From a virus: a DNA stretch of 64,000 bases. The notes beneath the pieces are model-generated. The model did not search any database, was not told where the DNA came from, and worked only from the letters and a program-made list of their open reading frames with translations. Positions 2,026 through 20,700 of the stretch are shown in pieces; position 1 is the stretch's first letter, and each line of letters starts with the position of its first letter. Location of the stretch: the IMG/VR virus record IMGVR_UViG_3300034060_000074; one strand, 5' to 3'. The translations under genes were made by a program, and so were the position numbers.

Positions 2026-3042
2026 TTAATAGTTAAGGTTATATTTTTGTTTCAATTCTAATAATTGTTGTACGTAATAATGATTAGCGTGTTTTTTAGA
2101 ACCTTCATCATTTAATACTACGTCTAAGTGTGTATCTTTAAAAGGATCTTTACCAGCGTGATATGCTCCTTTATAGAAGGCAGGATATCCCATACTGTTT
2201 TGTCCTGTAATTCCTGCATTGTGTAGAAGTGTTGTTCTATCCAGTTTCTCAATTGGATCTGAAGACCAACAAAATTCTAATTCAGGAATGTTCTTAGTCT
2301 CTTGTTCTCTAAGCCAAATGTTCCATAGCACAGCCCACATATCTGCACACCAGCTTTGAAACCCTTTGTTCTCATCTTTAAAGAACTGTTTGTTTATGTT
2401 CTGAAGATATGTACGAATAAGTACAGAATCATTCATCACCTTCTTCCAGAAGTCAGAATCTATGTTCTTAAGGAAGTATTGAGCTCCTCCTGAATGTTCA
2501 TTGTTAGCTTCAGCTATTTCTCTATTGATGCCCACCAAGCTTGTAATTTCAGCTAGAACATCTCTAGTTTTGTATTCTTCAAGCTTCTCTGGAAGCACAT
2601 CTCTCACTTTACTATCAAAATATGAAGCATTGATATAACTGTTTGTATCAGATAGATAGTTTATATCATCATCTTTAAACTCATCAATGTTAAATTTATC
2701 TGTAAATATGACATCACAATCACAGTAAAACACTGCTTTGGTGATCATATCAGGATTGTCCTGAAAATACCTCATTAAGCAATAGGGACGTAGAATAGGA
2801 ATATACACTCCTAAATACTGACTAACGTCTCCTGTATCCTTGTAGAAAGCAAACTGTGCTTCTGGATACAGCTCCATTATCTTCTCCCATTTACCATTGT
2901 ATTCTCTAAAACTAGGTGTGTACACTAAAACAATTGCCTTGTCTGAGTGCCCAAGCTTCTTCAAGCTTTCTAACCATAGATGTACCTGCCATGTGTAGTA
3001 GACATCATCTGGCTGGGCACAGATAAATTTAAGATCCTTCAT
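2026..3042 (-). CDS. GT-A fold glycosyltransferase resembling plant peptidyl-Ser galactosyl / Hyp-arabinosyl transferases (GT96/GT95-like)
   Basis: YYTWQ near the N-terminus, DxD (FYCDCDVIF), WCADMWAVLWN and a late LLHNAG. This order recalls the Y..WQ / DxD / W..EMY / H pattern of SGT/HPAT enzymes (from memory). Confidence 0.55.
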   Translation of the reverse strand: MKDLKFICAQPDDVYYTWQVHLWLESLKKLGHSDKAIVLVYTPSFREYNGKWEKIMELYPEAQFAFYKDTGDVSQYLGVYIPILRPYCLMRYFQDNPDMITKAVFYCDCDVIFTDKFNIDEFKDDDINYLSDTNSYINASYFDSKVRDVLPEKLEEYKTRDVLAEITSLVGINREIAEANNEHSGGAQYFLKNIDSDFWKKVMNDSVLIRTYLQNINKQFFKDENKGFQSWCADMWAVLWNIWLREQETKNIPELEFCWSSDPIEKLDRTTLLHNAGITGQNSMGYPAFYKGAYHAGKDPFKDTHLDVVLNDEGSKKHANHYYVQQLLELKQKYNLNY

Positions 3043-4608: not shown

Positions 4609-4995
4609 TTATCTTTTTATAGTGAAGAATTGTAATACTATAACACCAACTAATACCAGTTTTTGAGCAAACTCCCATCCACTATTATCTTTAGCAACAG
4701 GAATACGCATATTTAACCTTTCATCATATCTCACTCTATACTGATTTGTAACTGTATACAAGCTATCATATGTTGTTTTTTTCTTATTTATAATGCTGTC
4801 TTTTATATAAACATATGTCTTCAACGAATCAATTGTATTTTGATTAGATTGAAAATTATCATTTATAGTGGTTGCCTGCTTTAAGGTCATTATCACTACA
4901 GAATCATTTCCTATCTTCTTAACGATTGGATACTGGCAATAGGTTAAATTTGACACCAGTGTCAGCAAGATTGCTATCAAGTTTACTTTTAGCAT
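4609..4995 (-). CDS. Exported/membrane protein of the lysis region (spanin candidate)
   Basis: Hydrophobic N-terminus, coiled-coil-like middle, hydrophobic C-terminus (LVLVGVIVLQFF); overlaps the upstream gene by 77 nt. Confidence 0.55.
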   Translation of the reverse strand: MLKVNLIAILLTLVSNLTYCQYPIVKKIGNDSVVIMTLKQATTINDNFQSNQNTIDSLKTYVYIKDSIINKKKTTYDSLYTVTNQYRVRYDERLNMRIPVAKDNSGWEFAQKLVLVGVIVLQFFTIKR

Positions 4996-5248
4996 TAATT
5001 AATTCAGATTTTAATGAGCTAACCTCTGCCTTTAATGATACAATTTGGTTAACTGCTTGGTTTACTATTTTTGTTTGTGCTTTGGTAGCACCTTCTTGTA
5101 CAGCTGCACTATTTTTATTATTTTCTGAAACTTTGCTAAGTAGAGATTCAAACTCTTTATCTTCTTTAACTGTTTCATCAATGTGCTGAGCTGTGGTATA
5201 TTGACATCCATATAGACTTATTAATATTAAAAATGTTAATGTTCTCAT
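4919..5248 (-). CDS. Putative lipoprotein with coiled coil (spanin candidate)
   Basis: MRTLTFLILISLYGC lipobox-like signal; heptad-rich body. Confidence 0.55.
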   Translation of the reverse strand: MRTLTFLILISLYGCQYTTAQHIDETVKEDKEFESLLSKVSENNKNSAAVQEGATKAQTKIVNQAVNQIVSLKAEVSSLKSELINAKSKLDSNLADTGVKFNLLPVSNR

Positions 5249-5550
5249 TAGTGTAACTTTTTTATGGCCCCTAATTGTTGTAATGTTTGTAACTGAGTGG
5301 TAGTCACAGCTTTAGTGCTATCACTAACTCTTAATGCTTCCTGTACCTTATCTAATCTACCTTCCACCTTTTCAATACGTACATTCTGAGAAGTTGCCTG
5401 CTCTTTAAATGTTGTACGAACATCTACGTATAGATATGAAATTGCAATGAGCACCAGAAAAAGGGTGCCCACTATTGGGTTTTTAGCAAACTCCTTAAAC
5501 GATATAGGTAAAGGGTTTGCTGATATGTTTGTTTCTTTTTTCGCTGCCAT
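5248..5550 (-). CDS. Single-TM membrane protein (holin/antiholin candidate)
   Basis: TM segment IVGTLFLVLIAISYLYV followed by coiled coil; within the lysis cassette. Confidence 0.55.
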   Translation of the reverse strand: MAAKKETNISANPLPISFKEFAKNPIVGTLFLVLIAISYLYVDVRTTFKEQATSQNVRIEKVEGRLDKVQEALRVSDSTKAVTTTQLQTLQQLGAIKKLH

Positions 5551-5942
5551 TATCTTAATTTGTTTTTGTATTCTAATACAGCTAAACGCTGTTTGATCTC
5601 TGCTCTTTCAGTTGCTGCAGCTTCTTTGATATCAGTCATTTTTTGTACGATTTCCATCTTCATATCAGCTCTGCTTTGTGCTGCTGCCGCTCTAATAGCC
5701 TCCATCTCAATAGTAGTTCCCTGTGGAGGAATAGCTTTATTTTCAGTAGTTACTACCACTGCTATCTTATTATTTAAAACAGTTATCTGGTTGTTTAAGG
5801 TACTCACTTGAGTCAATAACCATCCAATAGCTGATACACAAATAGGTAAAAGTGTGAAAACTAACTTCTCTACCAACCCTGACTTACTTTTATCAGCTGC
5901 CAGTTGCTCAGATATCTTTTCATTCCTTTCTTCTTGTGTCAT
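5550..5942 (-). CDS. Single-TM coiled-coil protein
   Basis: LVFTLLPICVSAIGWLLT TM segment; translationally coupled to the endolysin. Confidence 0.6.
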   Translation of the reverse strand: MTQEERNEKISEQLAADKSKSGLVEKLVFTLLPICVSAIGWLLTQVSTLNNQITVLNNKIAVVVTTENKAIPPQGTTIEMEAIRAAAAQSRADMKMEIVQKMTDIKEAAATERAEIKQRLAVLEYKNKLR

Positions 5943-6547
5943 TATATACTACCATTTAAAAGGTTATTGTATTCATTAAAATGTTTTATACGATCTGGTA
6001 GACCAATTGTTCCACCATTAACACGCTTAGTCACTTTGGTTACCACTGCATCTGTAGCCCCCTCGTCAGCAATCTTATGTAATCCATTCTTATGGAAGAA
6101 CCAAGCTGCAGATAAAAGTGGGTACTTTGTAGCTACAAGATCAGGGTTAGCTAGGATATCCTCCTCTACAGTCTTGTCAAAAGCAGCGTAGTTATCCTTA
6201 CCTGTTAATTGTATATAACCACGACCTCTAAACTTATAACCTTCACCAGAAGCCTGAGGACCGTTACCCATACGATTAGCATAGACAACGTTAGCAATCT
6301 TTTCAGGCTTACGTTCGTACTCTTTAGCACTTATAGCTGTAAAGTATTTCTTAAAGATGCTCTGTAAACCAGCAGCACCATAGTTTAAGTTCTCTGTAAC
6401 AGCTTTGAATCCACCTGATTCATGTCCTGTTTGTGCTAGAAAATGAGCTAAACGTAAAGGAGTATTAATCTCAAACTTCTCTACTACACCAGGGATTTGT
6501 GCAATCACTGTGTCAGGAATATTTCCTTTTAACTTTTCTATGTTCAT
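5942..6547 (-). CDS. Endolysin, glycoside hydrolase family 19
   Basis: RLAHFLAQTGHESGGF...ENLNY and FRGRGYIQLTGKDNY signatures; TKRVNGGTIGLPDR C-terminus. Confidence 0.92.
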   Translation of the reverse strand: MNIEKLKGNIPDTVIAQIPGVVEKFEINTPLRLAHFLAQTGHESGGFKAVTENLNYGAAGLQSIFKKYFTAISAKEYERKPEKIANVVYANRMGNGPQASGEGYKFRGRGYIQLTGKDNYAAFDKTVEEDILANPDLVATKYPLLSAAWFFHKNGLHKIADEGATDAVVTKVTKRVNGGTIGLPDRIKHFNEYNNLLNGSI

Positions 6548-6549
6548 AG

Positions 6550-7152
6550 TTATTTAATTTTCCAATAGCTACTCAACCCATATATAACTTGACTATTGTT
6601 GTTTAATCCAATATGTAAACCAAATATCTTATCTCTCTTACTCTTGTAAAGCACTCCCCCCTGTATAGTTTGAAGTTCTATTTGTTTATTACCAGTGACA
6701 CCCCCACCCATAAATAAAGCTCCCTTAGAAGGAGCCTGCTTAGTAATAGTAGTGGTTGTATGGATAGTAGGTATCTTATAGTTATAGTTATAAGATCTAT
6801 TCTGTAAGTTGTTTTTATGTACTGTATCAGCTATAGCTACATATCCCAATGTGTCTAGCTTTAACGTATCAGTGTAGATGTTCTTTGCCAAGTAAGCAAT
6901 CACCAAGGAATCATATTGTGCTTTGAGCTTAGGATAGGATGTATCAGCTATGTATTCTGAAGGAGTTGAAATAGTGTCATGTATTGTCTCTTTGATCTTT
7001 AACTTCTTGATAATCAATGAGTCATGAACCTGCCAAGCAGTGTCATGTACAGTTACTATTTCAGACTTTTTGTCTATGTAAGTGCACCCATCATTTTGAA
7101 AAAATATAAATGCTAGTAAAACAAAAATTATGACACTAAGTAGTTTATTCAT
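6550..7152 (-). CDS. N-terminally anchored exported protein (inner-spanin candidate)
   Basis: MNKLLSVIIFVLLAFIFF signal anchor; immediately upstream of the endolysin; beta-rich C-terminus ending YWKIK. Confidence 0.5.
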   Translation of the reverse strand: MNKLLSVIIFVLLAFIFFQNDGCTYIDKKSEIVTVHDTAWQVHDSLIIKKLKIKETIHDTISTPSEYIADTSYPKLKAQYDSLVIAYLAKNIYTDTLKLDTLGYVAIADTVHKNNLQNRSYNYNYKIPTIHTTTTITKQAPSKGALFMGGGVTGNKQIELQTIQGGVLYKSKRDKIFGLHIGLNNNSQVIYGLSSYWKIK

Positions 7153-7396
7153 TATCTTCAGTTTGGTTTCTCTTATTAATAAATTTATCTACAGAAGCAA
7201 TACCAAAACAAGCTATAGTTAAGATTTTAAATGAGTCATATATGAATTCATTTACTAACAATGGTTTATTCATAGCCCCTGTAACAATATCTGTCAAAGC
7301 AAATACTATCATGATTAAAAAAGAAGCAAAACCAATTACAGCTTTCTCATTAATTGAGTTGCTGTCATCAAATAGATCAGAAAAGAATTTCTTCAT
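7145..7396 (-). CDS. Two-TM holin-like protein (probable start MKKFF at 7396)
   Basis: Two hydrophobic segments and a charged C-terminus; ORF track start at 7441 extends into the upstream gene. Confidence 0.55.
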   Translation of the reverse strand: MKKFFSDLFDDSNSINEKAVIGFASFLIMIVFALTDIVTGAMNKPLLVNEFIYDSFKILTIACFGIASVDKFINKRNQTEDNE

Positions 7397-7670
7397 GTTT
7401 TTCGTTTTTAGTTGTTTTTCTATTATTAGGTAGGATGGCATAGCTTGCTAATTCTAATTCTCTATTAGGAAGATCAAAAGGAATAGAAGCTGTTTTCTTA
7501 TAGATAATTCTTTCTAGATTATCTATACGTGTTTTGTCTACATTAGACTGAGCCATTAGGGCTTTGACATCTGATTTGATTTCAGTAACATCGTTCCAAA
7601 TCATCATTGCTAGTATTGATACTAAGCCAGGGAAAATCCAAACTTTGAAGGTTCCAACTTGTTCTTTCAT
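7377..7670 (-). CDS. Single-TM protein
   Basis: VWIFPGLVSILAMMIW TM segment followed by coiled coil. Confidence 0.6.
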   Translation of the reverse strand: MKEQVGTFKVWIFPGLVSILAMMIWNDVTEIKSDVKALMAQSNVDKTRIDNLERIIYKKTASIPFDLPNRELELASYAILPNNRKTTKNEKHEEILF

Positions 7671-7689
7671 CTTGTTTCAAAAATGACAA

Positions 7690-7723
7690 TAGCATGCCCT
7701 TCCCTAACAGGGAGAGTATGCTA
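7690..7723 (-). terminator. Probable intrinsic terminator or stem-loop after the DUF2061 gene
   Basis: TAGCAT...TCCCT-AAC-AGGGA...ATGCTA imperfect hairpin; T-rich tail on the minus strand. Confidence 0.5.
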
Positions 7724-7742
7724 TATAGTTTAAAAATGGGGG

Positions 7743-7949
7743 TTATTTCTTCAGACCATACTTAATCCATTTGTACCAAATACGTTCATGGATAAAGTAT
7801 TGAATAGGTTTGTATATAAGTTCAGCCACCCCAAAGGCAGCTCCTATCTTAATGGATTTGCTAATCCACCACATAAGCAAGAAGCCTATTATGGTGCTAA
7901 TAATCCTGTAACTTATAGTTTTTGCAATATGTCTCTTTAACAAGGGCAT
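7743..7949 (-). CDS. DUF2061-family small membrane protein
   Basis: RHIAKTISYRIIST...YFIHERIW signature; start set at the second Met because a promoter overlaps the first. Confidence 0.75.
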   Translation of the reverse strand: MPLLKRHIAKTISYRIISTIIGFLLMWWISKSIKIGAAFGVAELIYKPIQYFIHERIWYKWIKYGLKK

Positions 7950-7958
7950 AATTAGTGG

Positions 7959-7990
7959 CAAAGATATGTAAAATAAATGAATTGACCAAA
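7959..7990 (-). promoter_or_regulatory. Bacteroidota RpoD-type promoter
   Basis: TTTG (7987-7990), 20 nt, TATCTTTG (7959-7966). Confidence 0.7.
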
Positions 7991-7998
7991 TCTTTTTT

Positions 7999-8367
7999 TT
8001 AGTAGGGCTGATAGGATTTCTCCTCTACAAAGTCAGACCCATACTTAATATTAATTTCTTTTTTAATATATGCTCGCTTGTCATTCAATCTATAAACAGA
8101 TCTAGCTAGGTCAACAAACTCTTCTCCAAAACTACTAGATCTTTCAAAGTCTCTTAGAAGATCTTCCACCTTCCAGAGAAACTGGTTCACCTTAAGAAGT
8201 TCATCAGTCATAGGATCATGTAATATCTCAGGATCTATCACTGTGTTTAGGTAGTTTTTTTCCTTGAAAACATTAACCAATTTGTCTTTGTCCTTTATGT
8301 TCAAAGCTTTGATAGATAATATTGTCCATTTATCTACCACTTCTCCTATAGAAACTTCTATTTGCAT
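7999..8367 (-). CDS. DUF6165-family protein (probable start MQIEVSIGE at 8367)
   Basis: IEVSIGEVVDKWTILSIK...LWKVED..R...F..LARSVY..ND.RA.IK.EIN..YGS..VEEKSY pattern. Confidence 0.75.
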   Translation of the reverse strand: MQIEVSIGEVVDKWTILSIKALNIKDKDKLVNVFKEKNYLNTVIDPEILHDPMTDELLKVNQFLWKVEDLLRDFERSSSFGEEFVDLARSVYRLNDKRAYIKKEINIKYGSDFVEEKSYQPY

Positions 8368-8377
8368 ACTAAAAATG

Positions 8378-8408
8378 TTTGATATTCCACGCAAATATAC
8401 TAATTTTG
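8378..8408. promoter_or_regulatory. Back-to-back divergent Bacteroidota-type promoters
   Basis: Plus strand TTTG (8378-8381), 19 nt, TAATTTTG (8401-8408); minus strand TATATTTG (8392-8399), inside the 58-nt gap between divergent genes. Confidence 0.65.
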
Positions 8409-8425
8409 TTGTAAATACAATTAAT

Positions 8426-11400
8426 ATGCCCAACAGTTATACATATTTTAAGGAAGAAGTCAAGGAATGGTTCAAGAATAATGTTCCTGCTAGTACAAGA
8501 ATATTAGATATAGGCCCTGGACAAGGTACATATGGTAAGCTTTTAAGTGATATTGGGTATAGAGCTATAGATGCTGTTGAGGTGTGGGAACCCTACATTA
8601 GTGAGTATAAACTATGGGAGTATTATGGGATTATATACAACAATGATATACGTGAGTTTGATTGGTCTGAGTATGATTTTATCATCCTAGGTGATGTGTT
8701 AGAACATTTAACAGCTGAAGAAGGACAAAAGCTTATCAATGATATTGCCATGGCTAGGAAGCAATGTTTGGTTGCTATTCCATATATGATGGAGCAAGAT
8801 GGTGAGCAGTATGGTAATACATATGAAACCCACCTGCAGGCAGACCTTACAAAGGAAGTGATGGCAGAGCGTTACCCTACACTAGACTTGCTCTATGCAA
8901 ATGAGCATTATGGGTATTATGTAAGTAAGAAGGTGGTAGACAAAGCATTTGTACTCTATGCCACAGAAGCCTATTATGATATTGTGACAGCCTGTGTACA
9001 TTCTCTTACAACATTTAGTCAGTATCCTGTATTTGTTTACATGCTTAACTCTGACAAAAAGGTACCCAGAGCTACAACCATTAAATGGAACTGTGATATA
9101 GATCCAATAGAATACAACACCAAAGACCAGTTCTACATCAACAGGACAGATGATAGAATATATAACATCCTCATACAGCGTCCACTGATTGTTATAGACT
9201 GTCTAAAGTATGCTGACAGTGTGATGTATGTAGACAGTGACAGTGTTGCTACACCTTTTGTAGACAAAGTGTTTAATTATCCTGTCTCTGAGTATCCCCT
9301 GTTTACATCTAGTATCTATGACCAAATGTTTCTGAATGGAAAAGGAGATCTTGAGAAACATATATGTGAACTTCTAGCTATAAAGAGAGGCAGGTATATA
9401 CAAACAGGATACTTCCTAGCTAGTGTGAGCTGTCTGAAGTTCTTAAAGGAGTGGGCTAACATGTGTACTCATCCTACAATACTAAAAGACTTTAAGAAAT
9501 ACGCACCCTTCCATGAAGAAACTGTAGCCAATGCTGTACGCTGGAAGTATGAAATAGATCAGTCATTACCACTCATCTATACCAATGCTAGCTTGGATGT
9601 ACTAGAGAACATAGATAAATATGAGTTTGGTAAAGAACATTGGGAATGGTTTAAGCTACCTGATAGTAAGCATGAGTTGTTCTTTTACCATGGAGAGAAA
9701 CGACCAGATGTAATGTATAAGATGATTGATAGATTGAAAGGTAATAAAAGAGTGTTGTTCCTAGCTCCTCATCTATCTACAGGTGGTATGCCTGCGTTCC
9801 TATTAAAGAGAATACAAGAGATAAGCTACTGCACAGACATCTATGTAGTTGAGTACCAATGCCATAGCTTAGACTTTGTTGTACAGCGTAATGCAATCAA
9901 AGAGATTGTAGGATCTAACTTCACTACACTGTATGAGAACAAGATGGAACTGTTTGATATTATTGATAGCTGGAAGCCAGACATCATTCATCTGGATGAG
10001 CCTGCTGAGAGATATGACAGAGAGATGATTACTAAGTTGTATGATACAAACAGATCATACAAGATTGTAGAGACATTCCATGATGTAGCATTTAAGCCTG
10101 AAGAAAAAATCTTTCAGTCAGAAGCATATGCATTCTGTACACCATATCACCTCAATAAGTTTACCAACCTACAAGGTTATACAAAGGTGATTGAGTTTCC
10201 TATAGAGGATAAAAGGCCAGATGCTGTAGGTAAAATAATAGCTAAGAATATACTAGAGTTTGCTCCATTCAAGACCAGTGTTGTAAACATAGGACTATGG
10301 ACCCCAGGCAAGAATCAAGCAGAGGGAATAGAGATAGCTAAGAAGTACCCTCATATGGATTTCCATTTTGTAGGTAATCAAGCTGGTAACTTCAAAGACT
10401 ACTGGGAACCATTAATGAAAGACTTACCACCTAATGTAAAGATATGGGGAGAAAGAAATGATACATGGAAGTTTATGAGAGCTGCAGATATATTCATGTT
10501 CAACAGCACATGGGAATGCAACCCTCTTGTACTTAGAGAAGCAATCAGCTATGGTCTTCCTATCATAGCTAGAAACCTTCCTCAATATGAAGACATGTTT
10601 ACTAAGTATTTACAACCAATAGATACAGACTTAAACACTATACAAACTAACTATGAAGTACCTACAGAGAATACATTCAGACAAGACTACATAGACTTCT
10701 ACAACCACGTAGACTCTATTTCTTTACAGCCACAAGATGTAACCATCACACAACACTATGTTGTTAATCCATTCCTTGAGATAACAGGTGTGAGTGATAG
10801 TAATTTCAAGGTGGAATTCTATGATGAGCAGGGAGCGTGTCACTACAGTAGTGTGATCAAAACCAACCAGTGGGTAAAGCTAGATAGAAGCTATTACACT
10901 AAATGGAGAAGTAAGATATGGCAGGATGATGTTCTTATACATGACTACACATTAGACTATACAGACAAGACTGTCTTCATCTACTTTGATAGTGAGAGTC
11001 TTGGAGATACAATTGCATGGATACCATACTGTTTAGAGTTTAAGAAGAAGCACAACTGTCATGTTGTTGTTAGCACATATAAAAACTTCTTGTTTGAGAA
11101 AGCATATCCAGAGCTTGAGTTTGTTGCACCTGGAACACCTGTCAATGCTTATGGAGAATACATAATAGGTTGGAGATATAATAAAGACCAAGAGCCTGAG
11201 TTGTGTAACACTATACCTCTACAGAAAGCAGCTGCTAATATACTTGGACTACCATATAGAGAAATAAGACCTAGGTTTGCTTATACACCTGTGGAGTTTG
11301 AAGACAAGAGTAAGTATGTAACTATTGCTACAAACAGTACAACAGGATGTAAGTTTTGGACTAGAGAAGAGTGGCAGGAGTTAATTAACTATCTAGTGGA

Positions 11401-11803
11401 GAAAGGATACAAGGTGTATAATGTATCTAAAGAAAGAAATCCATTTGACAGATGTGTACAGATAGAAGATACATCAATGGATAACACCATTAATATGATT
11501 TGGAACAGTAAGTTCTTTATAGGACTATCTAGTGGATTAAGCTGGTTAGCTTGGATGATGGGTAAGCAAGTGGTGATGATATCTAACTTCACCAAAGCAG
11601 ACCATGAGTTTCAATCCAACTGTATAAGAATTACAGATGAAACTGTATGTCATGGCTGTTGGAACAATAAAAACTTCAAGTTTGATAGAGGAGACTGGAA
11701 CTGGTGCCCAATCTGGAAGGGTTATGACAGACAGTTTGAATGCCATAAAACCATCACAGCAGGTAAAGTTATAGCTTCCCTTCAGTCTTTAATTGCTCTC
11801 TAA
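8426..11803 (+). CDS. Four-domain enzyme: SAM methyltransferase + GT-A (DxD) + GT4-like + TibC/BAHT-like protein heptosyltransferase domain
   Basis: ILDIGPGQGTYG...ILGDVLEH (class I MTase); YVDSDS (DxD); FLAPHLSTGGMP...KNQ...ADIFMFNSTWECNPLVLREAISYGLPII (GT4); ESLGDTIAW...FIGLSSGLSWLAW...CHGCWN-C-C (TibC-like). Start moved to the MPNSY Met at 8426, just after the promoter. Confidence 0.8.
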   Translation: MPNSYTYFKEEVKEWFKNNVPASTRILDIGPGQGTYGKLLSDIGYRAIDAVEVWEPYISEYKLWEYYGIIYNNDIREFDWSEYDFIILGDVLEHLTAEEGQKLINDIAMARKQCLVAIPYMMEQDGEQYGNTYETHLQADLTKEVMAERYPTLDLLYANEHYGYYVSKKVVDKAFVLYATEAYYDIVTACVHSLTTFSQYPVFVYMLNSDKKVPRATTIKWNCDIDPIEYNTKDQFYINRTDDRIYNILIQRPLIVIDCLKYADSVMYVDSDSVATPFVDKVFNYPVSEYPLFTSSIYDQMFLNGKGDLEKHICELLAIKRGRYIQTGYFLASVSCLKFLKEWANMCTHPTILKDFKKYAPFHEETVANAVRWKYEIDQSLPLIYTNASLDVLENIDKYEFGKEHWEWFKLPDSKHELFFYHGEKRPDVMYKMIDRLKGNKRVLFLAPHLSTGGMPAFLLKRIQEISYCTDIYVVEYQCHSLDFVVQRNAIKEIVGSNFTTLYENKMELFDIIDSWKPDIIHLDEPAERYDREMITKLYDTNRSYKIVETFHDVAFKPEEKIFQSEAYAFCTPYHLNKFTNLQGYTKVIEFPIEDKRPDAVGKIIAKNILEFAPFKTSVVNIGLWTPGKNQAEGIEIAKKYPHMDFHFVGNQAGNFKDYWEPLMKDLPPNVKIWGERNDTWKFMRAADIFMFNSTWECNPLVLREAISYGLPIIARNLPQYEDMFTKYLQPIDTDLNTIQTNYEVPTENTFRQDYIDFYNHVDSISLQPQDVTITQHYVVNPFLEITGVSDSNFKVEFYDEQGACHYSSVIKTNQWVKLDRSYYTKWRSKIWQDDVLIHDYTLDYTDKTVFIYFDSESLGDTIAWIPYCLEFKKKHNCHVVVSTYKNFLFEKAYPELEFVAPGTPVNAYGEYIIGWRYNKDQEPELCNTIPLQKAAANILGLPYREIRPRFAYTPVEFEDKSKYVTIATNSTTGCKFWTREEWQELINYLVEKGYKVYNVSKERNPFDRCVQIEDTSMDNTINMIWNSKFFIGLSSGLSWLAWMMGKQVVMISNFTKADHEFQSNCIRITDETVCHGCWNNKNFKFDRGDWNWCPIWKGYDRQFECHKTITAGKVIASLQSLIAL

Positions 11804-12155
11804 TCTTTGTAGCAGAGATGTCACTTATTTCTTGAGGAGGAACATGTTCAACAACATCATATCCTACACCTCTACCAAAGTTAATAGACTCAATGTCAGG
11901 AATGATTATTAGTCTCACTTTGTTTTCTTCAATAAGATCTATTAGTTCTTCTGATAGATTCATCATTATTTGATATGCTGACCAAGGGTTCTTTTCATCT
12001 TGCTTAACATCTCGTACACATAGCAAGACCTTCTTTCCCTGGTTTAACTGTTGATCAATTAACCATCTGTGACCTTCGTGCCATGGTTGCCATCTTCCAA
12101 TGAACATAGCGTAGCCATCTGTCTTTCTATTTCCTTCAGCTAAAATATTCTGCAT
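11769..12155 (-). CDS. HxGH nucleotidyltransferase (cytidylyltransferase/NadM-like fold); possible minimal sulfate adenylyltransferase
   Basis: FIGRWQPWHEGH...NPWS...ISATKIRE motifs; coupled to the APS kinase gene. Confidence 0.7.
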   Translation of the reverse strand: MQNILAEGNRKTDGYAMFIGRWQPWHEGHRWLIDQQLNQGKKVLLCVRDVKQDEKNPWSAYQIMMNLSEELIDLIEENKVRLIIIPDIESINFGRGVGYDVVEHVPPQEISDISATKIREQLKTEGKL

Positions 12156-12574
12156 ATACGTTTGATTTGATCCACACTCTTCTCTATAGAAGTGTTAGAT
12201 GTATTAATAATTGAATCTATATTATCTCTATTTGGAACTTCAAAGTCTTCCACTTTAAATTGATCTCTACCTCTATCTTCTTCATATATAAGATAGATCC
12301 ACTTAACATCTCTAGTTAGACTGCTTAGATACTGTCTAGCTTCTTCATAAGGATACACTAGTGATAGAACAACATTGTGTCCTTTGTAGCTTAAATACTT
12401 TGCTATGTCACTAGCTCTGTTTAAGTTTTTAATCCTACCTTCTCTACTGTAGTCTTTGTTATTAAACATGTCTCTTAAGTCATCACCATCTATGTGGTGG
12501 AATCCCTCTGCCATAAACTTTTTAGCTAGGGTTGTCTTGCCTGATGCAGGCTGTCCAAAAATAACTATTATCAT
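12140..12574 (-). CDS. cysC: Adenylylsulfate (APS) kinase-like P-loop kinase
   Basis: GQPASGKTT P-loop, DGDDLR, DYSREGRIKNL and a late EVP motif typical of APS kinases; short (144 aa). Confidence 0.7.
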   Translation of the reverse strand: MIIVIFGQPASGKTTLAKKFMAEGFHHIDGDDLRDMFNNKDYSREGRIKNLNRASDIAKYLSYKGHNVVLSLVYPYEEARQYLSSLTRDVKWIYLIYEEDRGRDQFKVEDFEVPNRDNIDSIINTSNTSIEKSVDQIKRICRIF

Positions 12575-13389
12575 TTTGTATATCTAAATTGTTGAAAAAA
12601 CCATTGATAATTATCAAAGATCCAATTACTAACATCCTTACCTAATAAAGCTTTTGCTTTAGAGGGTACAGGTTCTAATCTAGTACGAATAGTATGGTCA
12701 CCAAAGCTTCCATACACTTCATCATCTTCTTTAGTTACTTGCTCTATGTTGTCCCAATCATGTTGGTAATATGGAATGCCTAAGTATTGATATATCCTTG
12801 TCATCTCTGTATCAGGATATAAACACAAGTCTTCAAATCTAACAAATAACATGTTCTTATCTGTACCCATTCTAAATATCTCTTGTAATCTTTCAATAGC
12901 AAGACCAACAGGTTGACTCTGTGCCCATATGTCTATACGTTTTGGAACTGTTGTTCCTTGCATCTGTGCCCAATTGAGAATAGCATTAGCCTTATCAGGA
13001 TTCTTTCTATAGTTGTTTTCCATAGAAGCAAAGATATCTCTAAGGTCCCTGACCATGCATATAATCTTTGGCTCTGGATGAATGAAGTTTAGGAAGTCAT
13101 AATGTATTCCCCATCCTCTACTCTTATCTACAACATATTTCTTATCTGTAATAGCATTGTAATAAGCAATCATTCCTTCTTTACAGAATGCTTGGAATGC
13201 AGCTTTCATCACCTGTGAGTCTTGAGCTTGAAACTCTGGACTGTCTGTGTAATTACCTCTAGCAGCAAACACCAATTCAAGAACACCACTAGTTGGTGTA
13301 GCATATACGTCTGGGTTTTGTGCTAATATGTTTTGTAACAATGTTGAACCTGCTCTTGGTAATGAGCTTTGATAGAATATATTTTCCAT
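12571..13389 (-). CDS. PAPS-dependent sulfotransferase
   Basis: SLPRAGSTLL (5'-PSB loop), RDLRDIFAS (3'-PB motif), VRFEDL. Confidence 0.88.
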   Translation of the reverse strand: MENIFYQSSLPRAGSTLLQNILAQNPDVYATPTSGVLELVFAARGNYTDSPEFQAQDSQVMKAAFQAFCKEGMIAYYNAITDKKYVVDKSRGWGIHYDFLNFIHPEPKIICMVRDLRDIFASMENNYRKNPDKANAILNWAQMQGTTVPKRIDIWAQSQPVGLAIERLQEIFRMGTDKNMLFVRFEDLCLYPDTEMTRIYQYLGIPYYQHDWDNIEQVTKEDDEVYGSFGDHTIRTRLEPVPSKAKALLGKDVSNWIFDNYQWFFQQFRYTK

Positions 13390-13390
13390 A

Positions 13391-14266
13391 TTAAGATTTT
13401 AAAGATGCAATAACTTGATCTACATTAAATATTTCTGTTTCATTGTTATATGGAAACTCTAATAGGTTTCCTGATATATCAAACTTCTGCAAGTATGCAT
13501 TACGTAACTCAGGCTTCTTGGTGAATGGATTACATACAATGTTATCATGTACATGATGTCCAAACACTTTAGGTTTGTTACACACCCAAAGGACTGTAGA
13601 AGGTTTATTCATAGCAGCAGCTGCGTGATGGCCAAAGCTATCCATAAACAATCTCTTACTACTAAGTTCTATAAGAACAGCTAGTGCTCTGAAGTTGTCT
13701 GTAACAGGAGTGGTGAAGTCATAACCAATCTGATCTTCTCTTCTTATGTGTACAATGTTATATTCATTTTTAAACTCCTCAATAACAGGACCTATAACAC
13801 ATGTAGGGATGTCTCTAGCCCATGAGTATTTCAACTCTTGTCCTGGAGCACCACCATTTGTTTGTAATAATAAAATAGGTTTGTCAGATGTAAACTTCTG
13901 ACCAAAGAATTTACGTTCTCTATCTGTAAGATAGAGCTTAGGTATGCTACTCTCAGGAGCGTCAATGCCAAACATCTTTGTCCATGTGAGACTCAAATGT
14001 TCATTCTGCATAAGATGTTCTGTCTGTATATATGGATCATGTCCAAACACTTTAAACTCTTTATCCTCTATAAAATCTTCATAGAAGTATTGTGTCATAC
14101 CAAAAGAAAATGAGCGATACACAAAGGGGTTGTTTATAAACACCTCTGGGTAACCGCTCATTACAATTAATTGACTATCAGGATATTGTGTATGAATTGC
14201 TTCACATACAGATGTGGCAAGTATACACTTACCTATACCACCATTGATTTGAAAAATGATATTCAT
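13391..14266 (-). CDS. GT9-like (heptosyltransferase-fold) glycosyltransferase
   Basis: GGIGKCILATSVCEAI N-terminus; LFMDSFGHHAAAAMNKPSTVLW matches the GT9 D(S/T)...H.A.A..KP...LW motif. Confidence 0.7.
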   Translation of the reverse strand: MNIIFQINGGIGKCILATSVCEAIHTQYPDSQLIVMSGYPEVFINNPFVYRSFSFGMTQYFYEDFIEDKEFKVFGHDPYIQTEHLMQNEHLSLTWTKMFGIDAPESSIPKLYLTDRERKFFGQKFTSDKPILLLQTNGGAPGQELKYSWARDIPTCVIGPVIEEFKNEYNIVHIRREDQIGYDFTTPVTDNFRALAVLIELSSKRLFMDSFGHHAAAAMNKPSTVLWVCNKPKVFGHHVHDNIVCNPFTKKPELRNAYLQKFDISGNLLEFPYNNETEIFNVDQVIASLKS

Positions 14267-14282
14267 AATTTAGCTTTATAAG

Positions 14283-14314
14283 CAAAGGTATACATTGCTT
14301 ATAATAAAACCAAA
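14283..14314 (-). promoter_or_regulatory. Bacteroidota RpoD-type promoter heading the GT9-sulfotransferase-kinase operon
   Basis: TTTG (14311-14314), 20 nt, TACCTTTG (14283-14290). Confidence 0.7.
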
Positions 14315-14324
14315 TTATTTAATA

Positions 14325-14702
14325 TTATTTTGCTGTAGTGGTAGTAGTGGTAGTTGTAGCAGGAGCACTAGTAGTTGTACTAGTTGTAGTTGTTGAATCT
14401 ACAAACACTGCTGCAGCTAATGCGTCTAATAAAGCTTGATCAAGATTAGCAGCTTCCACTCTAAATGATTGTGCATCTGGGCTATTAGGTAACCAGTCAC
14501 TAAACAAAGTGTTGAAGTTATTAATAGCATGATATGTCTTTGGACCTGTGTAGCCTACTGGCTTACCTGCCCATACGTTGTCTATCACTGCTTGTGCTTC
14601 TGCTTGTACATCTGCAATAGCTACCTGTACGTTTTGTGTGTCAGAAATTACCTGCACTGTACCAAAACCAAAAATGTGGATTGTATTCCATGCGTTTGCC
14701 AT
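14325..14702 (-). CDS. Hypothetical protein with a C-terminal poly-Thr tail
   Basis: Ends DSTTTTSTTTSAPATTTTTTTTAK; directly downstream of the giant fibre. Confidence 0.75.
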   Translation of the reverse strand: MANAWNTIHIFGFGTVQVISDTQNVQVAIADVQAEAQAVIDNVWAGKPVGYTGPKTYHAINNFNTLFSDWLPNSPDAQSFRVEAANLDQALLDALAAAVFVDSTTTTSTTTSAPATTTTTTTTAK

Positions 14703-14722
14703 AGTTGTTATTTTTTGTAAAG

Positions 14723-17700
14723 TTAAATTAAATTATTGTTTTTAAGTATATTTTCTATTATTTTTATTCTATCTTTTAAGCTATCATTCTCAGCTTTAAG
14801 TTCTTTGAAAGCGTTTACATAAGAAGCATATATGGCATCCTTCTCAAATTGTAGGATTGGACTACCACCTTGTTCAACTATCACCTCAAGACCATTCTCA
14901 TCCACTCTAGATAGTGGGTTTGTTTCCACTACACAAGACATTACTTGTTGTACTTCCTGTGCTATGAAACCATATTTCTTATGACATGATGTATCACCAT
15001 TCCAGCAATAGCTTACAGGCCTCAACTTAACAATATCATCTAGACCAAAGCAAGTATCTTGAATAGTATTCTTTCTTCTACAATCAGAAATACCACCACC
15101 CCATTGACACAAGTTATTTACAAATGTGTAGTTATTAGCTACACCTGGAATACAAGAACCAATAATGTGAGAGTTAGTTGTGCTATTACTACAGTTATAT
15201 GTACCACCTAAAATTGTTGACCAAGGAGAAGAAACATTTATTAAATTGCAACATCCACCCCCCATAAACGAACAATCAGCATATGTAAGATTACCATATC
15301 CGCCAACTACAACAGAGCGACAACCATTTGCTATATTATATAAACCACCACCTATTGTTGATTCATATCCTGATGCTGTGTTTCCTACACCACCCCCTAC
15401 AAAAGAAACATATCCTGATGCAGTATTTGAAGTGCCTCCTGTTATAGCACTTCTTGTATTTGAAGCAACGTTGTTTGTTCCGCCTGCAATTACTGACATA
15501 GCACCACCTATGGTATTGTTACTACCTCCTCCACCTATTGTAGAACAGTTAGCACTTGCAAAGTTAGAACTACCACCACCTACTGTTGAATTTATTCCTA
15601 ATGCACAGTTACTTGTACCTCCACCAACAAATGAACGACCACCTGTTGCTCTATTTACATAGCCACCTGAAACTGTTGAATAAGCTCCTGATGAACTATT
15701 ATTATAACCTCCTCCAACAAAAGCTCTTGGGCTTGTGGCACAGTTATCGCTACCACCTGCTGTTGTAGACCAAACACCTGATGAAATGTTTGCTTGACCA
15801 CCTCCAACAAATGAACAAGCTCCTGTAGCTGTGTTTGAAATACCACCTCCTACTGTTGAGCGATAAGCTGATGCTGTATTAGAACTACCTCCTCCAACAA
15901 CACTTGAATAACTACTTGATATATTAGAATTGCCTCCTCCAATAAAAGCAAAATAACAAGAAGCTGTATTATTACTACCGCCTACTACAGAACTTCTATA
16001 GAAATTGGCAGTATTTGTGAAACCTCCTCCTACAAATGACCAACCTCCTGATGCAATGTTATATCTTCCACTAAATGTTCCTGAACAACCTCCTGATGCA
16101 GTGTTTTGTAATGCACCACCTACAACAGAATGTCCTGATGATGCTATATTTAATTGTCCACCACTAACAGTAGCGTGTCCTGCTGATGCTATATTAGTAT
16201 TACCGCCTCCAATAGTTGAACAAGCCCCTGAAGCTGTATTTACAGCACCTCCTGCAATAGCAGATGTATCTCCTGAAGAAGTGTTTGAATTACCACTACC
16301 AATAAAACTTCTATATCCTGATGCTGTATGGTTACGACCACCAACTATTGTTGCCCAAGTAGTAGAAGCTGTATTTAAATAACCACCAACAACTATTGCA
16401 TATTCACCCCCACACGCTTTGTTACCATAACCACTACCAACAAATGAGAACGTAGTTGCAGCTAAATTACTTTGACCTCCTGCTACCACTGAAGCAACTC
16501 CTGATGATGTATTACCTTGACCTGAAGCATATGCAAACCCACCATTTGCAAGGTTGCCACACCCTCCTGATATTATGGAACAAGCTCCTGAAGCTATGTT
16601 ATATAAACCACTTCCTATAAATGAGTTACAACCACTTGCTGTACCTGAATCACCACCTGCAATTGCTGCGTATATTGCACTAGCTGTGTTACCATTACCA
16701 CTTCCAATAAATGCTCTAGCTCCAGAGGCAGTATTTACATTACCACCTGCTACTGTTGCGTGAGCTCCTGTTGCTCTATTCTGAAATCCTCCTCCAATAA
16801 AACTATACGCACCTGCTGCACTAAATGTTGGTGCCACTGTAAATGCACAAGCAGCAAGACTCCAAGTACCTCCTGATGTATTATTACCTACACCTCCACC
16901 TACTACAGCACCATAAGCTAAACAACCTGATGTTGCATTATATACATTATTGCAGTTACCACCACCAATAAATCCACCAAAAGCTGCAGCATAGTTTCTG
17001 CATCCTCCGCTAATAGCAGAACTTAAACCTAATGCTTGGTTTCCATAACCGCCGCTTACTGTAGAACCACCATTACCTGCTGCTTCATTACTTAATCCAC
17101 CTCCTATAGATGAATACGCACCTGATGCAGTATTTACTCTACCGCCTGCAATAGCAGCATTACTACAAGATGCAGTGTTGCAACAACCACCGCCTATTGC
17201 TGAATGTGCTCCTGAAGCTGTATTATTTCTTCCTCCTGCTACAGTAGAAAACCCTCCTGAAGCAGAATTATAATAACCGCCTCCAACAGAAGAGCAACCA
17301 CCACCTGCTGAAATACCATATCCACCACTAACTGTTGCATAAGCAGTTGTAGCTGAGTTTAGTCTACCACCACCAACAGTTGTCCAATATGAAGATGATG
17401 TATTACCACACCCACCACCTAAAAATGAACAAGCTCCTGAAGCTGTGTTACCTTGACCACCTGCTACTACTGATTTAGCTCCACTTGCTATATTAGAAAG
17501 TCCTGAACCAACAAATGAATTAGTTCCACTTGCTGTGTTTGTATCACCTCCTGCTATGGTACCATAACCTGCACTTACAGTGTTATTTGCACCACCACCA
17601 ATTGTTCCATGTATTACTGCTGAATTGTTTCTTCCACCTGATACTGTTGAATAAGTACCTGATGCAGTATTATTACATCCTCCTCCTGAAAATGAATAAT

Positions 17701-20700
17701 CTCCTGTAGCTTTTACAACTCTACCACCAACTACAGTGCTATGACTTCCTGTTGCACAGTTAAAAAGACCTCCTCCTACAAATGCTCTTGTATTTACTGC
17801 TTGGTTCAATTCTCCTCCTACCACTACAGTATAATTATTTGATGAAGTGTTAGAACATCCTCCTCCTACAAATGCACAATTACCATTAGCAGTGTTTGCT
17901 CTTCCTCCTGATACTGTTGAATGGGCTGCTGAAGCAAGATTGGCTTGACCTCCTCCTACTGTAGAAAAACCACCACTTGATGTATTACTAAATCCACCTG
18001 CTATTGTTGAATAGCACGCAGATACTGTATTTAAATAACCACCTGCTATTGTAGCCAAGTAACCACTAGCTGAGTTTCCTCTACCACCACCTACTGTCGA
18101 TTGTCCATTAGAAGATGTGTTACTAGCTCCCCCACCTACTACTGAACAGTTTCCTGATGCAGTATTACCAAATCCTCCTCCTATAAAACCACGATACCCT
18201 GATGCTGTATTACTAGCTCCACCTGCAACTATAGAATCTGCACCATTTGATACATTGCTTCTACCTCCTCCTATAAATGACCAAGTACCTGATGCTGTGT
18301 TAAGACAACCACCAACTATTGTAGCAAAAGTATTAGTAGCCCTATTCTGAAATCCTCCTCCTATAAAACTAAAATCACCTGCCGCACATATTGTAGGTGC
18401 AACATTAAATCTTTGACCATTCCAAGTACCACCTGTTGTATTACCACCTACACCACCTGCTATTGTTACAGCACAAACTTTTGCACCACAAATATAGTTT
18501 GAACTACCCCCACCAATAGCTGCAAACCCATTACCAAATGCAGTAGATACACTACAAATAAAATTTTGATAGCCTCCTGATATTGTAGAATAACTTGCAG
18601 AGTTAGTATTAAAATACCCACTCAATATAGATGCATAAGGTTTAGGGGCACTATTACCAAATCCACCACCAATTATCGATAAGTCACCTGATGCTATATT
18701 GCATCCGCCTCCTAAAACAACAGAACAAGCATTTGAGGCTGTGTTATTTGCACCACCTCCAACAATTGAATGTCCACCTGATGCTGTGTTTGAGTTTCCA
18801 CTGCCAACAAAAGAACGACTTCCTGAAGATATATTTCCTAAACCACCTCCTATTGTTCCTTCATATCCACTTGATGTATTTGCTCTACCACTTCCTACAA
18901 AAGAATATCCTGATGAAGCTGTATTACCACAACCTCCTGCTACTGCTGCTCTATAAGATGACGCTGTATTATTTTGACCTCCTCCTATAAATGAATGTGC
19001 ACCACTAGCATTATTGCTTTGACCTCCACCAATAGCAGCACAAGCTCCTGAAGAACTATTTAATTTACCACTACCTATAAAGGAATGACTTCCTAATGAA
19101 ACGTTATTACACCCACTAGCAATACCTGACATATCTCCTGTAGCACAGTTTTGCAATCCTGCACCAACAAAAGCTCTTGCATTTGTTGCAAGGTTTAATT
19201 CACCTCCTGCTACAACTGAATATATACCACTAGCTGTATTTGCACATCCTCCACTTACAGTAGAACAAGCCCCTGAAGATGTGTTAGCTCTACCTCCTGC
19301 TACACTTGCAAAAGCACCTGAAGCAACGTTTTGCTGTCCACCTGATACAATTGCTCTTCCTCCTGTGGCTGTATTTAAAATACCTCCTCCTACAGTTGAA
19401 AAATCTCCTCCTGCTGTATTTCCATATCCACCACTGACTGTTGTATTACAAGATGATGCATTATTACACGCACCACCACCCACTGTAGAACTTGAATATG
19501 CGTTAGCACAATTTTTATAACCACCTGATACAGTTGAATAACTTCCTGTTGCTCTATTCTGAAATCCTCCTCCTATAAAAGAGTATTGACCTGCAACACA
19601 TTTAGTTGGAGCAACTGTAAAATCACAAGCTGCTAAAGACCAAGTACCCCCTGTAGTGTTGTTTCCAATACCACCTGCTATGGTAGCACCAAGAACTAAA
19701 CAAGATGATGTAGGGCTGCAAATTATATTACATAATCCTGCTCCAACAAATGAATAAATACCACCTGCATAGTTTACACCACCACCAACTATTGTTGATT
19801 CTATGGCTGATGCTACGTTTGCATATCCTCCACCTATAAACGAATAACATCCTGATACAGTATGACCTCTACCGCCACCAAGGAATGACATACAGTTGCT
19901 CACTGTATTAGAAAATCCACCTACCGCTGAAGAATATCTTGAACTTACAGTATTTCCATATCCACTTCCTATAAATGAACTAGTTGCTGTAACTGTGTTC
20001 CTATCTCCACCTGCTATTGTTGCAAAATTTCCACAAGCTACGTTCGTACATCCACCTCCTACAGCAGCATATACTGCTGAAGCTATGTTACTTTGACCTC
20101 CTCCTACTGTAGAACAAGCTCCTGAAGCTGAGTTTAGATAACCTCCTGCAACCACAGAGTGAGAACCTGATGCAGTGTTTGCCTGACCGCCTAATATAGC
20201 TGCTCTATATCCACTTGCAGTGTTAGCCCATCCTCCTGCTACAACAGTTTGATAATAACTTGCTGTGTTAGCACATCCATTTCCAACAAATGAACCAACT
20301 CCTGAAGCTGTGTTACCTTTTCCACCAACCACTGCTGACTCTCCTGACGTTGCAGCATTAGCACATCCTCCACCTACAAAACTACAAGCCCCTGATGCAG
20401 TGTTTGATATACCACCTGCAACTGTTGAGTTTGCTCCTGAAGCACAGTTACTTGTTCCTCCTCCTATAGTGGAACGATTACCTGATGCTCTATTTATGTA
20501 ACCACCTGATATTGTAGAATATGTATTTGAAGCACTATTATTATAACCTCCACCTACAAACGCTCTTGGACTTATAGCACAGTTATCACTACCTCCTACA
20601 ACTGCAGACCAAGCACCTGTTGCAGTATTTGCTTGACCACCTCCAACTGTTGAACAGTTACCTGATGCAGTGTTACCTTGACCACCTCCAATAAATGACA

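Follow-up and report, generated by a model that had tools for sequence, protein, structure and literature searches.

A four-domain transferase of an aquatic crAss-like phage, with a divergent TibC-like domain and a possible role in virion glycosylation

What does a phage do with one protein that combines a methyltransferase with three glycosyltransferase (GT) domains, and on which molecule does such a protein act? This question is raised by a gene of an uncultured lake phage, the IMG/VR virus record IMGVR_UViG_3300034060_000074, of which we analyzed 64 kb, called the window hereafter (the record measures 67.6 kb and is estimated to be 58% complete). The gene occupies positions 8426 to 11803 of the plus strand and is one intact open reading frame (ORF) of 1125 amino acids plus stop, within an enclosing frame that spans 8264-11803. 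Translation from the ATG at 8426 gives a protein starting with MPNSY, whose first two residues, M1 and P2, do not vary among 37 homologues (54-92% identity, the alignment to which all statements of invariance below refer), and most homologous proteins start at the same place. The start at 8426 is therefore correct, and the first-pass annotation, which had seen here a single chain of about 1125 residues, was accurate in both extent and start.

We propose, with a probability of about one half, that the gene encodes a cytoplasmic enzyme of four activities that builds a short modified glycan, likely on the virion proteins of the phage itself; the proposal draws on homology, predicted structure and analogy with known systems. 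The C-terminal domain, related to the heptosyltransferases TibC and AAH, would transfer heptose from ADP-heptose to Ser/Thr hydroxyls of proteins, with ADP-heptose supplied by the host in this phage and by a pathway of their own in some relatives. The GT-A (GT6/GT8-like) and GT4 domains, both of retaining types, would add two more sugars, and the S-adenosylmethionine (SAM)-dependent methyltransferase would O-methylate the glycan. The best candidates as acceptors would be made in the cytoplasm, like the enzyme: a fibre with Gly-Thr-Ser collagen-like and beta-solenoid repeats, whose gene lies downstream, and poly-Thr/Ser linkers in the muzzle and further structural proteins. It is probably on this product, too, that the sulfation genes nearby and a DUF6165 partner act. 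By analogy, such an assembly line in one chain, as the first-pass annotation had suggested (priming of a protein hydroxyl, two extensions and a methyl cap), is plausible; the order of these steps and the joint action of the four domains on one glycan are what we infer here.

The protein is composed of the following parts, by nucleotide position.

8426-8926, plus strand: domain 1, class I SAM-dependent methyltransferase, residues 1-167, with motif I (D28-x-G30-x-G32-x-G34), D49 and D90 invariant.
8936-9739, plus strand: domain 2, retaining-type GT-A fold, residues 171-438, with invariant D270-S-D272 (DxD) and H422-G-x-K425.
9746-10720, plus strand: domain 3, GT4-type GT-B, residues 441-765, with an invariant H449-x-STGGMP loop and E697-x7-E705.
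10739-10990, plus strand: domain 4a, TibC-type N-terminal beta-barrel, residues 772-855, eight strands according to DSSP (residues 341-424 of the model).
11000-11800, plus strand: domain 4b, catalytic domain of the TibC/AAH family (bacterial autotransporter heptosyltransferases, BAHT; GT9-like), residues 859-1125, assigned by phmmer and TIGR04414.
11648-11743, plus strand: iron-finger Cys tetrad C1075, C1078, C1094 and C1106, aligned to TibC Cys-339/342/358/370 and invariant in the 37 homologues.

These assignments come from sequence profiles and from two AlphaFold2 (AF2) models built on the homologue alignment, one of residues 1-485 (mean predicted local distance difference test, pLDDT, of 86.3; mbf9b591bd4e0) and one of residues 432-1125 (pLDDT 87.3; me8752708ec42). 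Domain 1 remained under the cut-off of Pfam Methyltransf_23 (E 1.3e-3, 18.9 vs 27). It matched annotated class I methyltransferases of phages by tblastn (E 1e-27 to 1e-9), and its Foldseek matches were methyltransferases bound to SAM or S-adenosylhomocysteine (CysG(N-16), BelI, 3cc8 and ChlM), all with a probability of 1.0. Domain 2 is recognizable as GT-A by its modelled fold alone. Residues 169-438 aligned by VIA-align with retaining GT-A enzymes at Z 15-16 (root-mean-square deviation, rmsd, 3.3-3.9 A over 200-230 residues), among them the GT6 alpha-1,3-GalT, ABO transferases and BoGT6a, the GT8 enzymes LgtC and glycogenin, and WbbM (Z 15.9). At the sequence level, the domain and eight homologous segments gave no glycosyltransferase match in Pfam even at E up to 10, and a phmmer search of residues 1-480 against the PDB sequences returned no GT-A chain, just a marginal methyltransferase match. 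Domain 3 carries Pfam Glycos_transf_1 at residues 620-727 (E 4.8e-10, 39.7 bits vs a cut-off of 26.4) as well as Glyco_trans_1_4, matches the PHROG 2170 glycosyltransferase, and finds PimB', MshA, BshA, WaaG, PglA and the chlorovirus NY2A glycosyltransferase 3oy2 by Foldseek.

Domain 4 is the one that connects the protein with heptose. It scored 241.6 bits against NCBIfam TIGR04414 (hepto_Aah_TibC; cut-off 200), with residues 790-1121 covering positions 25-373 of the 374 in the profile, and 24.6 bits against Pfam Glyco_transf_9 (residues 958-1062, cut-off 22). A phmmer comparison with the PDB sequence of TibC (4rap) gave E 3.9e-45, and Foldseek aligned the model with 4rap/4rb4 at E 1e-25, with a TM-score (target) of 0.80-0.83 and an rmsd of 2.4-3.8 A over about 372 columns. 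As about 372 of the approximately 381 target residues are covered, the alignment takes in the beta-barrel. The C-terminal domain thus does match BAHT and GT-B structures, and in the domain-wise Foldseek check each of the four domains found the fold that the first-pass annotation had named for it; Pfam, NCBIfam, the PDB match and the Foldseek and VIA-align results on the AF2 models leave all four calls standing as real. The match of all four domains is far beyond chance. Moreover, as catalytic and binding residues of every domain (motif I of the methyltransferase, D270xD272, E697x7E705, D861, T972, K976, W1040 and the four Cys) are invariant in the 37 homologues, the gene is under selection as an enzyme.

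We then compared the TibC-like domain with TibC residue by residue, using the phmmer alignment to 4rap. In TibC, residues 1-97 form the beta-barrel, Asp-110 is the catalytic base, Thr-226 and Lys-230 contact the beta-phosphate, and Trp-305 contacts heptose O4 (PMC4358343). The equivalent residues are D861, T972, K976 and W1040, none of which varies in the phage family. TibC Cys-339/342/358/370 are the ligands of an iron, and the iron finger that they form holds the protein substrate (PMC4358343). Here, the cluster reads CHGCWN...WCP...FEC, from C1075 (11648-11650) to C1106 (11741-11743), with the spacing C-x2-C-x15-C-x11-C as in TibC, so that the TibC-type Fe-Cys4 cluster had been placed at its exact position by the first-pass annotation, with identical spacing. 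Other features of TibC are altered. Its Arg-286 contacts adenine N1, which explains the ADP specificity (PMC4358343), and the phage protein has T1021 at this position, invariant in the phage family, in an alignment that is ungapped from there to the GLSSG motif. The site of stereo-selectivity is taken by TibC's Pro-300 and by AAH's Ser-294, and AAH and TibC P300S alike accept both L,D- and D,D-heptose (PMC4358343); S1035, also invariant, occupies it in the phage domain. Finally, TibC builds a dodecamer through a beta-hairpin thumb with a hydrophobic tip, Phe-265/Val-266 (PMC4358343). The thumb region of the phage protein is about 10 residues shorter, owing to two deletions, one of 6 and one of 4 residues, that the phmmer alignment shows, and DSSP found no hairpin in the corresponding stretch of the AF2 model (residues 1000-1017), just coil and one short bridge. 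On sequence and predicted structure, the TibC-like domain is a true BAHT relative of a divergent, thumbless branch, and not a plain TibC, considering the missing thumb and the replacement of Arg-286 by an invariant Thr. Judging from the model, the phage enzyme probably does not form the dodecameric ring of TibC, and it probably works as a monomer or dimer within the fusion protein.

The family assignment bears on a serious rival explanation, which we nevertheless consider rather unlikely: that the enzyme remodels the host envelope (lipopolysaccharide (LPS) core, O-antigen, capsule or surface proteins), and not proteins of the phage, in order to block superinfection or the sticking of progeny to debris. 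Apart from the BAHTs, GT9 enzymes act on LPS cores, and WaaC, RfaC and RfaQ gave weak matches here; the GT-A domain resembles WbbM, and the GT4 matches include WaaG, both being polysaccharide or LPS enzymes. Methyltransferase capping also belongs to O-antigen synthesis, as in WbdD. However, the BAHT equivalog profile scored 241.6 bits and the heptosyltransferase I profile 25 bits, and the iron finger, which holds protein in TibC, is invariant in the phage family. Both observations weigh against this rival, and the gene context discussed below adds to them.

We asked whether the four-domain arrangement is a peculiarity of this record. A word-indexed search returned 2625 proteins at E up to 1e-5; the 120 matches listed are all close relatives, nearly all full length (about 1110-1165 amino acids, 54-92% identity), on contigs that reach about 120 kb and stem from JGI, ENA, Logan, Tara and NCBI metagenome-assembled genomes, and those with a name bear the automatic label "autotransporter strand-loop-strand O-heptosyltransferase". 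In IMG/VR, 423 contigs hold a relative of the enzyme. Some of these relatives have no methyltransferase domain, their matches starting near residue 170. The samples come from lakes, rivers and the sea, and 17 lake-water metagenome runs hold the gene almost verbatim. Among GenBank phages, the gene gave no megablast match, and the tblastn matches of the enzyme, in 10 records, were confined to single domains and included no full-length relative. When the TibC-like domain alone was used for a full scan, 1398 cluster representatives were recovered (E up to 1e-3), and the best of them are mostly multidomain proteins. The nearest relatives of the domain are likewise multidomain, the four sampled with their contigs lying in phage-like contexts, and the sampled fusions on phage-like contigs join it to GT4, GT2, GT25, FkbM or DUF6165. 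One fusion was found in a cultivated phage, Microcystis phage Mel-JY01 (PP395634.1), where positions 4750-8430 encode a 1226-residue GT4 and TibC-like protein including the TibC_1st barrel, annotated merely as "methyltransferase FkbM". This protein offers a possible experimental entry point in a cultivated cyanophage. Our literature searches found no paper describing a TibC-like enzyme of a phage.

The phages that carry the enzyme are crAss-like and aquatic. The window itself encodes a homologue of a crAss-type muzzle protein.

50000-55093, minus strand: 1697-residue homologue of the crAss-type muzzle protein (annotation from csAssE-Sib), with two poly-Thr tracts.

Its similarity extends to structural proteins from phages of Leptolyngbya, Cellulophaga and Flavobacterium. 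An adjacent ORF (49119-49988, minus strand) aligns with the C-terminus of the PHROG that the muzzle homologue also matches (15100), and the gene may be split.

The distribution bears on a second alternative, that the domains are fused for co-expression and act on different substrates, for example the TibC-like domain on the fibre and the others elsewhere. Modules are indeed shuffled freely in this family, as seen in the variants without methyltransferase, in a homologue with an additional FkbM domain (P0011) and in the fusions with GT2, GT25 and DUF6165; moreover, the phage has a separate HPAT-like glycosyltransferase, itself just a lead (see below), and several classes of Ser/Thr-rich sequence. 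On the other hand, the order GT-A, GT4, TibC-like recurs in 423 viral contigs and in at least 120 homologues of full length, and A064R of the chlorovirus PBCV-1, the one well-studied viral multi-transferase, acts sequentially on one glycan. We therefore regard action on separate substrates as improbable and retain a common glycan as the preferred reading.

The surrounding genes offer candidates for a protein acceptor. The enzyme gene sits in a fibre and lysis module, between the endolysin and fibre genes, and no autotransporter partner gene was found, the neighbours being collagen-like and beta-solenoid fibres of the phage structural module. The most conspicuous candidate lies downstream.

14723-23974, minus strand: fibre of 3083 residues, candidate acceptor (translation; Pfam Collagen, E 2.8e-65, and Peptidase_S74).

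About 650 residues of this fibre are proline-free collagen-like repeats, (Gly-Thr/Ser-Ser/Thr)n, and about 1900 residues form roughly 100 beta-solenoid repeats of 14 or 15 residues with the consensus GG-x-x-N-T-A-S-G-x-x-S-F/T-V/I. In the repeat profile, Ser or Thr reaches 59-79% at three positions, giving Ser/Thr ladders, and the C-terminus is an S74 intramolecular chaperone domain. Many Cys were also noticed in variable positions of the solenoid repeats. In the window, poly-Thr/Ser tracts occur in six ORFs, the muzzle homologue included, and Gly-X-Y arrays in two fibres.

These sequences accompany the enzyme gene. Coding runs of six Thr numbered 16, 30, 6, 42, 13 and 38 in six genomes with the gene and 0 in each of four relatives without it (Cellulophaga phi17:2, Flavobacterium FpV4, Leptolyngbya Lbo-JY46 and csAssE-Sib). 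Runs of (G-S/T-S/T)x4 numbered 83 in this record, the only gene-bearing genome counted for them, and again 0 in each of the four. Furthermore, a Ser/Thr-rich collagen-like ORF lies 4-10 kb downstream of the orthologue in 26 of the 30 loci with full flanks. Virion proteins therefore appear from their sequences as the likeliest target of the enzyme, as poly-Thr tracts and collagen-like fibres track the presence of the gene and neither is found in the four relatives that do not have it. The same pattern speaks against remodelling of the host envelope, since the gene is surrounded by fibre genes and goes together with Ser/Thr-rich virion proteins, and neither a membrane anchor nor a lipid-carrier enzyme is evident beside it.

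We next considered the source of the donor, which we infer to be ADP-heptose. The first-pass annotation had seen no sugar-nucleotide synthesis genes in the window. For heptose this holds, as no PfkB kinase was found in this record and neither rfaE domain II nor a heptose epimerase in five complete relatives (113-119 kb, the closest one included); the statement had missed the adjoining nucleotidyltransferase, APS-kinase and sulfotransferase genes described below and the cassettes of some relatives. In the relative L003, the orthologue (57% identical) is followed by an ADP-heptose cassette (13897-16507, minus strand) that encodes an HldD-like epimerase (E 5e-52), an HldE kinase domain (3e-38), an HldE adenylyltransferase domain (4e-29), a phosphatase and a cupin. 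In 5 of 84 loci (L003, L033, L034, L036 and L039), the orthologue has such a cassette as its neighbour. The HldE kinase and adenylyltransferase of these cassettes are split genes, the phosphatase has 100 residues, and the cupin, of 122 residues, might substitute for the GmhA isomerase. This association is the best evidence for ADP-heptose use and suggests, from gene neighbourhood, that the TibC-like domain takes this donor. The presence of an epimerase in the cassettes also fits S1035, as AAH with Ser at this site tolerates L,D-heptose. In this phage and most relatives the donor would come from the host, since heptose genes were not found there. The dependence of most relatives on donors from host envelope pathways is a point that envelope remodelling can claim in its favor.

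Heptose could in principle also be placed on nucleic acid, and phage clusters that put mono- and di-heptose on 5-hydroxymethylcytosine have been reconstituted with a cytidylyltransferase and a GT-B enzyme (bioRxiv 10.1101/2023.12.21.572611). That the enzyme hypermodifies phage DNA with heptose glycans on hydroxymethyl-pyrimidines, for restriction evasion, is nonetheless highly unlikely. Neither a thymidylate-synthase-like hydroxymethylase nor a C5 DNA methylase was found in this record or in four complete relatives (a search for Tet/JBP carries no weight, as the control genomes gave no match), the gene belongs to the structural and not the replication module, and the fold is that of TibC with a protein-binding barrel and an iron finger, not that of DNA enzymes like T4 beta-GT.

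Genes that recur beside the enzyme suggest further partners for the proposed virion glycan.

8368-8425, no strand: divergent intergenic region of 58 bp with two back-to-back TAnnTTTG boxes, at 8392-8399 (minus strand) and 8401-8408 (plus strand).
7999-8367, minus strand: DUF6165 gene of 122 residues, divergent from the enzyme gene (Pfam DUF6165, E 3e-11).
11769-13389, minus strand: HxGH nucleotidyltransferase-like (128 residues), APS (adenosine 5'-phosphosulfate)-kinase-like (144 residues) and sulfotransferase (272 residues) genes, adjoining one another and convergent with the enzyme gene at its 3' end (Pfam CTP_transf_like, APS_kinase and Sulfotransfer_3; NCBIfam).
13391-14266, minus strand: conserved protein of 291 residues after the sulfotransferase, 62% identical to its L003 orthologue.

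The enzyme gene is the sole plus-strand gene within a long run of minus-strand genes, an inverted orientation that is also found in relatives L002-L004, and its 3' end overlaps the end of the converging gene by 35 bases. The TAnnTTTG boxes correspond to the -7 promoter motif of Bacteroidota and hint, as weak evidence, at Bacteroidota promoters or a Bacteroidota host; a motif scan of the window showed no more than a modest enrichment (106 matches vs 77 +/- 9 expected). In metatranscriptomes, four identical contigs of 151 nt from two RNA libraries fall inside the enzyme gene, which is mostly uncovered, and we do not count them as proof of transcription, as DNA carry-over is possible.

DUF6165 is a likely functional partner of the enzyme, considering that its gene lies divergently upstream of the orthologue in 33 of the 84 loci and that it is fused to two TibC-like domains in P0134. 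A complex prediction of DUF6165 with the TibC-like domain scored 0.00 and, being made without controls, speaks neither way. The three converging genes lie beside the orthologue in 21-23 of the 84 loci (19-23 if the 291-residue gene is counted too). They resemble a minimal set for sulfate activation and sulfation, the 128-residue protein being NMNAT-like and the sulfotransferase NoeE-like; the former might serve as the ATP sulfurylase. We also considered the 128-residue nucleotidyltransferase as a heptose-1-phosphate adenylyltransferase and rejected this idea, as its L003 orthologue (72% identity) is another gene, NMNAT-like, and as it shows no similarity to the L003 rfaE domain II. The 291-residue protein has one look-alike cluster in the Atlas with PF01075 in 15% of the members, a lead only; Pfam, the PDB sequences and hhalign against the GT4 plus TibC profile gave no support for a GT9-like protein, which would have made it a second heptosyltransferase.

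Two other ORFs deserve mention. A 338-residue protein (2026-3042, minus strand; PHROG 4417, function blank) is conserved in relatives and lies between genes with Thr tails, and its look-alike clusters in the Atlas contain Pfam HPAT (hydroxyproline O-arabinosyltransferase) in 10-58% of the members; it may be a second protein O-glycosyltransferase. A DUF2061-like ORF (7752-7937, minus strand) is 75% identical to the ORF that, in L003, overlaps the enzyme gene at its 3' end; here it lies on the other side, beyond DUF6165.

Several points weigh against glycosylation of virion proteins by the enzyme. Each functional step is argued from homology or from gene neighbourhood. In autotransporters, known BAHTs modify Ser of the beta-helices, and we know of no BAHT that modifies collagen-like or poly-Thr sequences. 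The order of the domains, with the methyltransferase first and the TibC-like domain last, is the reverse of the proposed order of reactions. As Arg-286 is replaced by Thr, the nucleotide or sugar specificity may differ from that of TibC, and the heptose cassette is present in just 5 of the 84 loci and in neither this record nor the five complete relatives. The genomes that carry the gene form one clade and were compared with only four that do not; the Ser/Thr association thus counts as one evolutionary observation and not as ten, and poly-Thr linkers may simply be spacers. We therefore put forward the most specific version of our proposal tentatively: the thumbless, non-dodecameric BAHT domain would O-heptosylate Ser/Thr of the proline-free collagen-like and beta-solenoid fibres and of poly-Thr linkers, the two glycosyltransferases would extend the glycan, the methyltransferase would cap it and, in this phage, the neighbouring genes would sulfate it, giving a mucin-like coat in a large clade of aquatic crAss-like phages.

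To our knowledge, protein O-heptosylation is known only from a few adhesin systems of enterobacteria and Burkholderia, and phage virion glycosylation mainly from mycobacteriophages. A widespread and conserved phage BAHT fusion, present on 423 IMG/VR contigs, would extend both fields. If the proposal is true, protein heptosylation would here be seen for the first time beyond the autotransporters of bacteria, and for the first time in a virus. The GT-A domain, which matches no Pfam family, would then found a new glycosyltransferase family. The enzyme would also suggest that environmental phages commonly carry fibres coated with glycans, with a bearing on adsorption, on the stability of proline-free collagen helices and on escape from proteases or recognition. 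In addition, a compact enzyme of four activities would serve glyco-engineering, and a monomeric thumbless variant would let one test why TibC needs its dodecamer.

Among known systems, the closest family is BAHT (TibC/AAH; PDB 4RAP/4RB4). The C-terminal 350 residues or so share the plan of the TibC protomer, a beta-barrel followed by a GT-B catalytic domain, with an identity of about 26-27% in the structure-based Foldseek alignment. The catalytic Asp, the phosphate and sugar contacts and the Cys4 spacing are kept, and both enzymes would act in the cytoplasm. In contrast to TibC and AAH, the phage domain is the last of four transferase domains fused in one protein, and it differs from TibC in the deleted thumb, the change of Arg-286 to Thr and a Ser instead of a Pro at the stereo-selectivity site.

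Multidomain enzymes of O-antigen synthesis offer a second comparison. WbbM (PDB 6u4b) also has several glycosyltransferase domains per chain, and the phage GT-A domain matches it at Z 15.9, while WbdA and WbdD are multidomain O-antigen enzymes of the ABC-transporter pathway in which methylation is a chain-end modification. Unlike the phage enzyme, all of them lack a BAHT domain and work at the membrane, on polymers linked to undecaprenyl. Mycobacteriophages offer a third, as their virions are glycosylated on capsid and tail-tube proteins (Freeman et al. 2023, cited in PMC12619734), and phage-encoded glycosyltransferases and methyltransferases lie near the structural genes. The methyltransferase domain described here is 29-32% identical by tblastn to class I methyltransferases of the mycobacteriophages Phrappuccino, Settecandela and prophiGD91-2. 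The mycobacteriophage enzymes differ in being separate and single-domain, without a TibC-like domain, in a Gram-positive-like host, with the C-terminal tails of capsid and tail-tube subunits as acceptors.

The closest working analogue is the chlorovirus A064R, a GT-GT-methyltransferase protein of PBCV-1 that finishes and methylates the capsid glycan (PMC9614988). In both cases a single viral polypeptide unites two glycosyltransferase domains with a class I SAM methyltransferase, and the phage enzyme, like A064R, would act on a virion glycan with donors from the infected cell. The two are likened by architecture, without a claim of homology: A064R has three domains, finishes an N-glycan with rhamnose and has no priming domain of the BAHT type. 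Moreover, the order of its domains follows the order of its reactions, whereas in the phage enzyme this order would be reversed.

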